From: Escherichia coli
Lineage (GTDB): Bacteria; Pseudomonadota; Gammaproteobacteria; Enterobacterales; Enterobacteriaceae
Reading direction: 5' to 3' (one strand)
Length of the DNA: 64,000 bases
Assembly (NCBI RefSeq): GCF_016026235.1
Contig: NZ_CP065613.1
Within the stretch, counting starts at the first letter, position 1; each line of letters begins with the position of its first letter. A program made the translations under genes and the position numbers. Under the pieces are notes generated by a model that made no database searches, was not told the DNA's origin, and saw only the letters and a program-made list of their open reading frames with translations. Positions 48,336 through 49,132 of this stretch are shown here, in pieces.

Positions 48336-48668
48336 GTGCCTAATGCCCGCTCTCACGCTGTACTGACCACTGAATCAAAGGTCACGATACGCGGACAAAC
48401 AACTATCCCCGCGCCAGTGCGTGAGGCCTTAAAACTGAAGCCAGGCCTGGACAACATTCATTACGAAATTCTGCCTGGTGGGCAAGTATTTATGTGCCGA
48501 CTGGGAGATGAACAGGAGGATCATACTATGAATGCATTTTTGCGTTTTCTGGATGCAGATATCCAGAACAACCCGCAAAAAACTCGTCCATTCGACATTC
48601 AACAAGGAAAGAAACTTGTCGCTGGCATGGACGTCAACATTGATGATGAGATTGGCGACGACGAATAA
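48336..48668 (+). CDS. prlF: antitoxin PrlF (SohA), AbrB/SpoVT-type
   Basis: 110-aa ORF with acidic C-terminus (DDEIGDDE); stop overlaps downstream ATG (TAATG). Confidence 0.85.
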   Translation: MPNARSHAVLTTESKVTIRGQTTIPAPVREALKLKPGLDNIHYEILPGGQVFMCRLGDEQEDHTMNAFLRFLDADIQNNPQKTRPFDIQQGKKLVAGMDVNIDDEIGDDE

Positions 48669-49132
48669 TGGATTTTCCACAAAGGGTTAATGGTTGGGCG
48701 CTATATGCTCATCCCTGTTTTCAGGAAACCTACGACGCTTTAGTTGCCGAAGTCGAGACATTAAAGGGAAAAGATCCTGAAAATTATTAGAGAAATGCCG
48801 CCACAAAGTTATTGGCAGCAGTTCACAAAGTGATTGAGGAGCATATCACGGTCAATCCATCATCACCGGCATTCCGTCATGGCAAGTCGTTAGGCTCTGG
48901 GAAAAATAAAGACTGGTCACGGGTAAAATTTGGTGCTGGTCGTTATCGTCTCTTCTTTCGTTATAGTGAAAAAGAGAAAGTCATCATTCTGGGATGGATG
49001 AACGATGAAAACACGCTGCGCACCTACGGTAAAAAAACAGATGCCTATACCGTATTCAGCAAAATGTTAAAAAGAGGACATCCTCCTGCCGACTGGGAAA
49101 CCCTCACCCGAGAGACAGAAGAAACCCATTGA
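48668..49132 (+). pseudogene. yhaV: toxin YhaV reading frame interrupted by in-frame TAG at 48788-48790 (codon 41)
   Basis: Frame from ATG 48668 translates MDFPQRVNGWALYAHPCFQETYDALVAEVETLKGKDPENY*RNAATKLLAAVHKVIEE...ETEETH; 155 codons, same span as the recalled 154-aa gene. Confidence 0.6.

Follow-up and report, generated by a model that had tools for sequence, protein, structure and literature searches.

A premature amber codon in yhaV at a very probably decaying prlF-yhaV toxin-antitoxin locus of Escherichia coli

The PrlF-YhaV pair of E. coli K-12 is a type II toxin-antitoxin (TA) system (Schmidt et al. 2007, J Mol Biol 372:894, as cited in PMC2807027), and the toxin, YhaV, is a translation-dependent mRNA endoribonuclease of the RelE superfamily (Choi et al. 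2017, as cited in PMC10790755). Toxin_YhaV is found in at least 60% of the isolates of most sequence types and in only 2% in ST95 and ST12 (mBio 2023, PMC10790755). The same study reports that, among E. coli chromosomal TA systems, orphan antitoxins are abundant and toxin loss is lineage-specific.

We analyzed the prlF-yhaV locus in a stretch of 64,000 nucleotides of E. coli DNA, referred to here as the window. The gene order is garP, garD, prlF, yhaV, agaR and kbaZ, as in MG1655 and in every other E. coli examined. The locus resembles prlF-yhaV of K-12 in its position between garD and agaR, in its TAATG junction, in its nucleotide sequence (98.5% identity) and in the Pfam and NCBIfam families that it matches. 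Unlike the K-12 locus, it has an amber codon in place of Gln41 of yhaV and a prlF Shine-Dalgarno sequence reading AAGTA rather than AAGGA, and it is 10 bp shorter at the start of prlF, so that PrlF would need to start at a GTG and would have 110 rather than 111 aa. The same C-to-T change at codon 41 is found in the yhaV genes that RefSeq annotates with an internal stop in E. coli B, E. coli C, O145:H28 and O169:H41, and these alleles and the window have a common flanking haplotype, which extends from the ribosome-binding site of prlF as far as codon 53 of yhaV. Those genomes keep both copies of a 10-bp unit and the native prlF ATG, unlike the window, whereas the yhaV of BL21 (TaKaRa) carries the changes W10* and R85W, both of which are absent from the window copy. 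The pattern described in PMC10790755, in which the toxin is lost and the antitoxin reading frame is kept, is like that of the window, except that the window antitoxin is itself damaged at its start; the Q41amber allele is not described in that study. We consider it very probable that the window holds a decaying chromosomal type II TA locus in which yhaV is a true pseudogene.

The yhaV ATG (48668-48670) overlaps the prlF stop codon TAA (48666-48668) by one A, giving the TAATG junction. It opens a frame of 40 sense codons (MDFPQ...KGKDPENY; full fragment MDFPQRVNGWALYAHPCFQETYDALVAEVETLKGKDPENY) that ends in an in-frame TAG, and past the TAG the same frame stays open via RNAATKLLAAVHKVIEE... up to a TGA at 49130-49132, for 154 codons plus stop. 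The features of the gene are as follows.

48668-49132, + strand: pseudogene of the toxin gene yhaV, 154 codons interrupted by an amber (from the frame, the MG1655 alignment and PF11663)
48788-48790, + strand: in-frame TAG, Q41amber, CAG in K-12 (from the frame, the alignment and a 41-nt probe)
48668-48790, + strand: 40-aa N-terminal fragment, the sole expected yhaV product (from the ORF list and an AlphaFold2 model)
48812-49132, + strand: mechanical TTG-initiated ORF of 106 aa, the remainder of yhaV, probably unexpressed (from the ORF list; no Shine-Dalgarno sequence)

The first-pass annotation had placed an amber at codon 41 of a frame starting at ATG 48668 with the TAATG overlap, and all of this was confirmed on the sequence. 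Its remark that the ORF list reports the downstream part as a 106-aa TTG ORF was also correct, and the 40-aa ATG ORF is listed as well. In an alignment with MG1655, codon 41 is CAG in K-12 and there are zero indels across yhaV; a single C-to-T transition thus accounts for the lesion. This agrees with the proposed change from CAG to TAG, with the description of a nonsense codon rather than a frameshift, and with a span like that of K-12 YhaV. The window yhaV differs in protein only by Q41*, K43N and V51A, the latter two falling at variable columns.

When the stop is read as Q, YhaV matches Pfam PF11663 (Toxin_YhaV) over residues 12-150 (model 1-137/138, E 3.4e-54), and the repaired protein is 96% identical to the common E. 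coli YhaV. Codon 41 lies inside this domain match and inside the conserved frame, which disposes of the possibility that it falls outside the real coding region. An NCBIfam scan of YhaV and its fragments matched no family, and a PDB sequence search with YhaV gave chance-level matches only, with no solved relative by sequence. Several database entries for YhaV (P0032, P0033, P0036, P0043 and P0055) have a length of 200 aa at 90-99% identity, and one entry (P0037) also bears the PrlF Pfam domain; such entries may reflect gene calls that were extended too far or, in some genomes, fusions of prlF and yhaV.

We aligned 28 full-length YhaV homologues, the most distant at about 50% identity, and used the same alignment for an AlphaFold2 model of the repaired protein (pLDDT 91.7, pTM 0.88). 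Within residues 1-40, G9, W10, F18 and V29 are invariant across the homologues and N8, H15, P16, L25, K35, P37 and Y40 are nearly so, which makes the N-terminal part integral to the YhaV family. The model has strands at 5-7 and 10-14 (a beta-hairpin spanning 5-14), helices at 16-35 and 44-60, a three-stranded sheet at 84-88, 93-100 and 105-111, and then C-terminal helices. In a Foldseek search with the conceptual full-length model, the top PDB matches were PfiT, HigB2, RelE and ParE, with probabilities up to 1.00. Repaired YhaV is thus predicted from the model to adopt a RelE-like fold, comprising an N-terminal strand, a two-helix hairpin and an antiparallel sheet. The stop sits in the modelled loop that separates helix 16-35 from helix 44-60. 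Missing from the 40-aa fragment are the sheet and the invariant Arg and Lys at positions 85, 87, 92, 94 and 98, and the truncation takes away about three quarters of the conserved Toxin_YhaV domain. Judged by its sequence, yhaV here is a pseudogene of the Toxin_YhaV family and not a functional member of it.

The distribution of the allele was determined with a 41-nt probe centred on codon 41 (48755-48795), for which exact matches were counted in complete E. coli genomes. The TAG version was found in 173 of the 4,832 complete genomes that match the probe stretch (∼3.6%), and the CAG version in 3,262. Carriers of the amber allele include the E. coli B derivatives BL21, BLR(DE3), C41, C43, C2566 and C3029, as well as E. 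coli C, O145:H28 and O169:H41 strains. In a public assembly collection, 3,843 blocks index the 40-aa YhaV product, and PGAP tags yhaV as pseudo with an internal stop in FDAARGOS_943, PT62, BL21 (TaKaRa) and DP051. It had been left open whether the change was specific to this strain or a sequencing error. Since the same allele occurs in many independent genomes, both are excluded. An error in sequencing or assembly, with CAG as the true codon, has practically no probability: it would have to account for an identical base in all of these independently finished genomes and in the contigs of the collection blocks, always on one surrounding haplotype and annotated by PGAP as an internal stop.

To tell a pseudogene from a gene that is read through, we examined 16 amber alleles, some from finished genomes and some from assemblies. 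Two of the loci, L014 and L016, were left out as evidence of decay; their extra prlF and yhaV indels were discounted because garD and agaR are also broken there, as in error-rich assemblies. Two amber alleles, those of BL21 (TaKaRa) (L007, 1114-1578) and DP051 (L018, 11081-11545), carry both W10* (TGG to TGA) and R85W. R85W is found in three further amber alleles and R92H in one, another is shifted in frame by the loss of 1 bp from an A7 run, and private substitutions, A44S and T46K, occur in two. W10, R85 and R92 are invariant across the YhaV family in the 28-homologue alignment. If full-length YhaV were under selection, W10*, R85W, R92H and the frameshift would be expected to be purged; the amber alleles thus behave as neutral pseudogenes. 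The window copy is the least-decayed amber form, with no second disabling change, and the E. coli B-type pseudogene (W10*, R85W) is more decayed.

These lesions bear directly on whether the stop is read through. Partial decoding of UAG by a suppressor or a near-cognate tRNA-Gln could yield a little full-length toxin and hence an attenuated but functional TA system. Both supE-type suppression and near-cognate decoding place Gln at UAG, and the replaced codon is CAG, so that Gln insertion would give back the ancestral residue 41; moreover, the window frame 3′ of the TAG is open, with only two conservative substitutions. However, E. coli B and the BL21 family, which carry the allele, are classical non-suppressor hosts for amber mutants, and in other carriers the sequence on both sides of the stop is damaged, with loss of invariant residues or of the frame. 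No tRNA gene, and hence no suppressor tRNA, lies within the 64-kb window, a result that says nothing on the rest of the genome. The damaged antitoxin start of the window lineage, described below, would also be dangerous were toxin made. Functional read-through would go together with a downstream frame conserved among the carriers and with a suppressor; what was found instead are the lesions of the carriers and a window free of tRNA genes. We regard such a read-through system as very unlikely. Trace near-cognate read-through of the window yhaV may occur and would insert Gln, but nothing supports a function for it. Of the two interpretations offered by the first-pass annotation, that of a defused TA module holds, the toxin gene being disabled by one nonsense codon, while that of tolerated amber read-through is opposed by the secondary lesions and by the non-suppressor carriers of the BL21 family.

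A split gene was considered as well, in which translation would reinitiate at TTG 48812 or GTG 48830 and give a C-terminal fragment of 100-106 aa with ribonuclease activity. Such a fragment still matches PF11663 and holds the predicted beta-sheet and the invariant Arg/Lys residues, and both codons are ≤40 nt from the stop. Yet neither is preceded by a Shine-Dalgarno sequence (duplex energies of −0.4 kcal/mol at TTG 48812 and −1.8 kcal/mol at GTG 48830), and they correspond to codons 49 and 55, both inside predicted helix 44-60. The fragment would therefore begin within that helix, without the beta-hairpin and helix 16-35 that bear invariant residues, and its sequence gains R85W, R92H and the frameshift in other carriers. 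The position of these starts and their lack of a Shine-Dalgarno sequence make a functional C-terminal fragment unlikely, and to the split gene as a whole we assign only an extremely slim chance.

We also examined the antitoxin gene, which the first-pass annotation had called intact. An alignment shows that the window is 10 bp shorter at the 5′ end of prlF than MG1655, FDAARGOS_943 and PT62. In the amber haplotype, the start of prlF reads GTGC-CTAATGCCCG-CTAATGCTCG-CTCTCAC; here a 10-bp unit with the native ATG inside it is repeated in tandem, the copies agreeing at 9/10 positions. The features of this region are as follows.

48279-48306, + strand: promoter-like site 5′ of prlF, TTTGCA, 16-nt spacer, TATAAT (consensus scan 10/12; putative function)
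48336-48668, + strand: prlF ORF with a GTG start, 110 aa (from the ORF list and NF007429)
48340-48349, + strand: the one surviving 10-bp unit CTAATGCCCG, the deletion junction, where relatives have CTAATGCCCG followed by CTAATGCTCG (from alignments)
48343-48366, + strand: native prlF ATG, out of frame, encoding MPALTLY and then TGA (from translation; the start is that given by PGAP in MG1655, FDAARGOS_943, PT62 and BL21)

The promoter-like site lies just downstream of a terminator-like hairpin of garD (48218-48243). The 110-aa ORF is kept only because GTG 48336, six bases upstream of the native ATG, falls in frame; the resulting protein starts MPNARSH..., compared with MPANARSH... for the native 111-aa protein. 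There is no good Shine-Dalgarno sequence 5′ of this GTG, the best duplex being −2.6 kcal/mol, and a native in-frame prlF start with a ribosome-binding site is absent from the window. Residues 3-110 of the ORF match the NCBIfam PrlF equivalog NF007429 at 165.1 bits (cut-off 125), and PF15937 is recorded for an identical 110-aa PrlF product. The match of residues 14-37 to TIGR01439, an AbrB/SpoVT-type N-terminal DNA-binding domain, reaches 26.4 bits against a cut-off of 28.3. The description of prlF as intact therefore stands as far as an open 110-aa frame that scores above its family cut-off is concerned, but the native ATG is out of frame through the 10-bp deletion and the GTG is not the native start.

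A match to the region is found in 5,164 complete E. coli genomes, and all of them lack the deletion, the best identity being 92.4% (121/131). The deletion is present in GCA_012772885.1, GCA_021349815.1 and SRR13627083; all three of the deletion loci retrieved also carry the TAG, and over 871 bp two of them show no difference from the window. The exact 110-aa PrlF is on record for 30 contigs, in 48 blocks of the collection, and is named PrlF of E. coli by NCBI (for example EFK2889784.1). Since the deletion recurs in independent assemblies and protein records, it is not an artefact. In GCA_021349815.1 (L006), it stands on a different yhaV 3′ sub-haplotype, including R85W, unlike the window and the loci L004 and L005. 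The presence of the deletion on two such sub-haplotypes suggests, from sequence comparison, recurrent slippage at the tandem repeat or recombination.

These results raise the possibility that prlF is also non-functional here and the whole module dead, the alternative being a PrlF that persists on its own, as an orphan antitoxin or a regulator. The native ATG now leads to a 7-aa peptide, the sole in-frame start is a GTG without a Shine-Dalgarno sequence, and the deletion is tolerated in several assemblies, all with a dead toxin. On the other hand, the ORF is otherwise undamaged and well over the PrlF family cut-off, PGAP names the GTG-initiated protein PrlF as normal so that the antitoxin may still function, and GTG starts with weak signals can still be used. 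We believe that a dead prlF is plausible, at somewhat less than an even chance; whether PrlF is still produced in the window strain appears about evenly balanced.

The weakening of prlF is not limited to the deletion. The K-12 Shine-Dalgarno sequence of prlF, AAGGA, has a duplex energy of −5.3 kcal/mol, compared with −0.4 kcal/mol for the AAGTA of the amber haplotype, which differs by a G-to-T change. All 16 sampled amber alleles have the weak Shine-Dalgarno sequence together with the spacer changes that create the tandem repeat, as one 5′ haplotype. A probe for this haplotype matched 175 genomes, compared with 173 with TAG; these are totals and not matched genome lists, and their near-equality suggests linkage of the 5′ haplotype and the TAG. 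Together the results indicate that the weak-Shine-Dalgarno, tandem-repeat prlF haplotype and the TAG are probably inherited together. The differences between the amber haplotype and K-12 are clustered, with four in 48332-48342, the ribosome-binding region of prlF, and seven in 48788-48826, the 39 nt that begin with the amber codon; very few are found elsewhere in the operon. It is possible that these clusters are small recombination patches. The amber haplotype could also be read as a maintained, attenuated TA system, in which the weak prlF ribosome-binding site and the UAG are co-selected, trace Gln read-through supplies toxin, antitoxin is low and the slippage repeat serves as an on/off switch for the antitoxin; we find this scarcely credible.

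We favor instead the gradual decay of the locus. The layout of a type II TA operon is kept, but it now holds a truncated toxin gene and an antitoxin gene damaged at its start. A C-to-T transition turned Gln41 (CAG) into an amber codon, so that translation would halt after 40 residues and no active toxin would be made. The nonsense allele is common and appears to be old, and it belongs to a haplotype with the AAGGA-to-AAGTA change in the prlF Shine-Dalgarno sequence and the near-perfect 10-bp tandem repeat. In the window lineage one repeat unit is lost, a step that would have come later and probably arose by replication slippage, and this loss puts the native prlF ATG out of frame. The 110-aa PrlF, if made, would start at the upstream GTG with poor ribosome-binding signals. 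With no active YhaV to neutralize, the loss of efficient PrlF translation would be tolerated at no cost.

Scans with Rfam and for repeats around the locus found nothing overlapping prlF-yhaV. Elsewhere in the window, an IS1-family transposase ORF of 167 aa (57758-58261, − strand; NF033558, 143.7 bits; region 57640-58582) lies between kbaY and agaB of the aga cluster; in DP051, the closest finished genome, these two genes are adjacent, 166 bp apart. The yhaC gene (40264-41451, + strand) is intact, encoding 395 aa that match NF007262 over the full length at 864 bits, and is frameshifted in DP051. Ordinary E. coli features are rnpB, the RNase P RNA (41558-41934, − strand; 318.6 bits), and a naRNA4 element that is present twice (3837-3918 and 4038-4116, both − strand). 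The best 22-kb match to the window is 98.9% identical, in pieces, with IS-like repeats. A Shigella origin of the window, considered on account of this match, was set aside, since NCBI assigns the exact PrlF variant to E. coli and the gene order around the locus is the usual one for this species.

Among the papers covered by our literature searches, none describes yhaV Q41amber. The allele is nevertheless already known, since RefSeq annotates the pseudogene in BL21 and many other strains, and the prlF 10-bp deletion is a minor, lineage-restricted detail that is already in public protein records. The finding has little importance beyond bookkeeping. PrlF-YhaV, which is often counted among the type II TA systems of E. 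coli, does not function in a sizeable minority of strains, the BL21 family among them. This is relevant to the interpretation of persistence studies, of TA-deletion studies and of BLAST-based surveys of presence and absence, the last because matches at the nucleotide level score a dead locus as present. The weak ribosome-binding site, the lost antitoxin start and the extra lesions in other carriers make a tidy natural case of the stepwise decay of a TA system after the death of its toxin.
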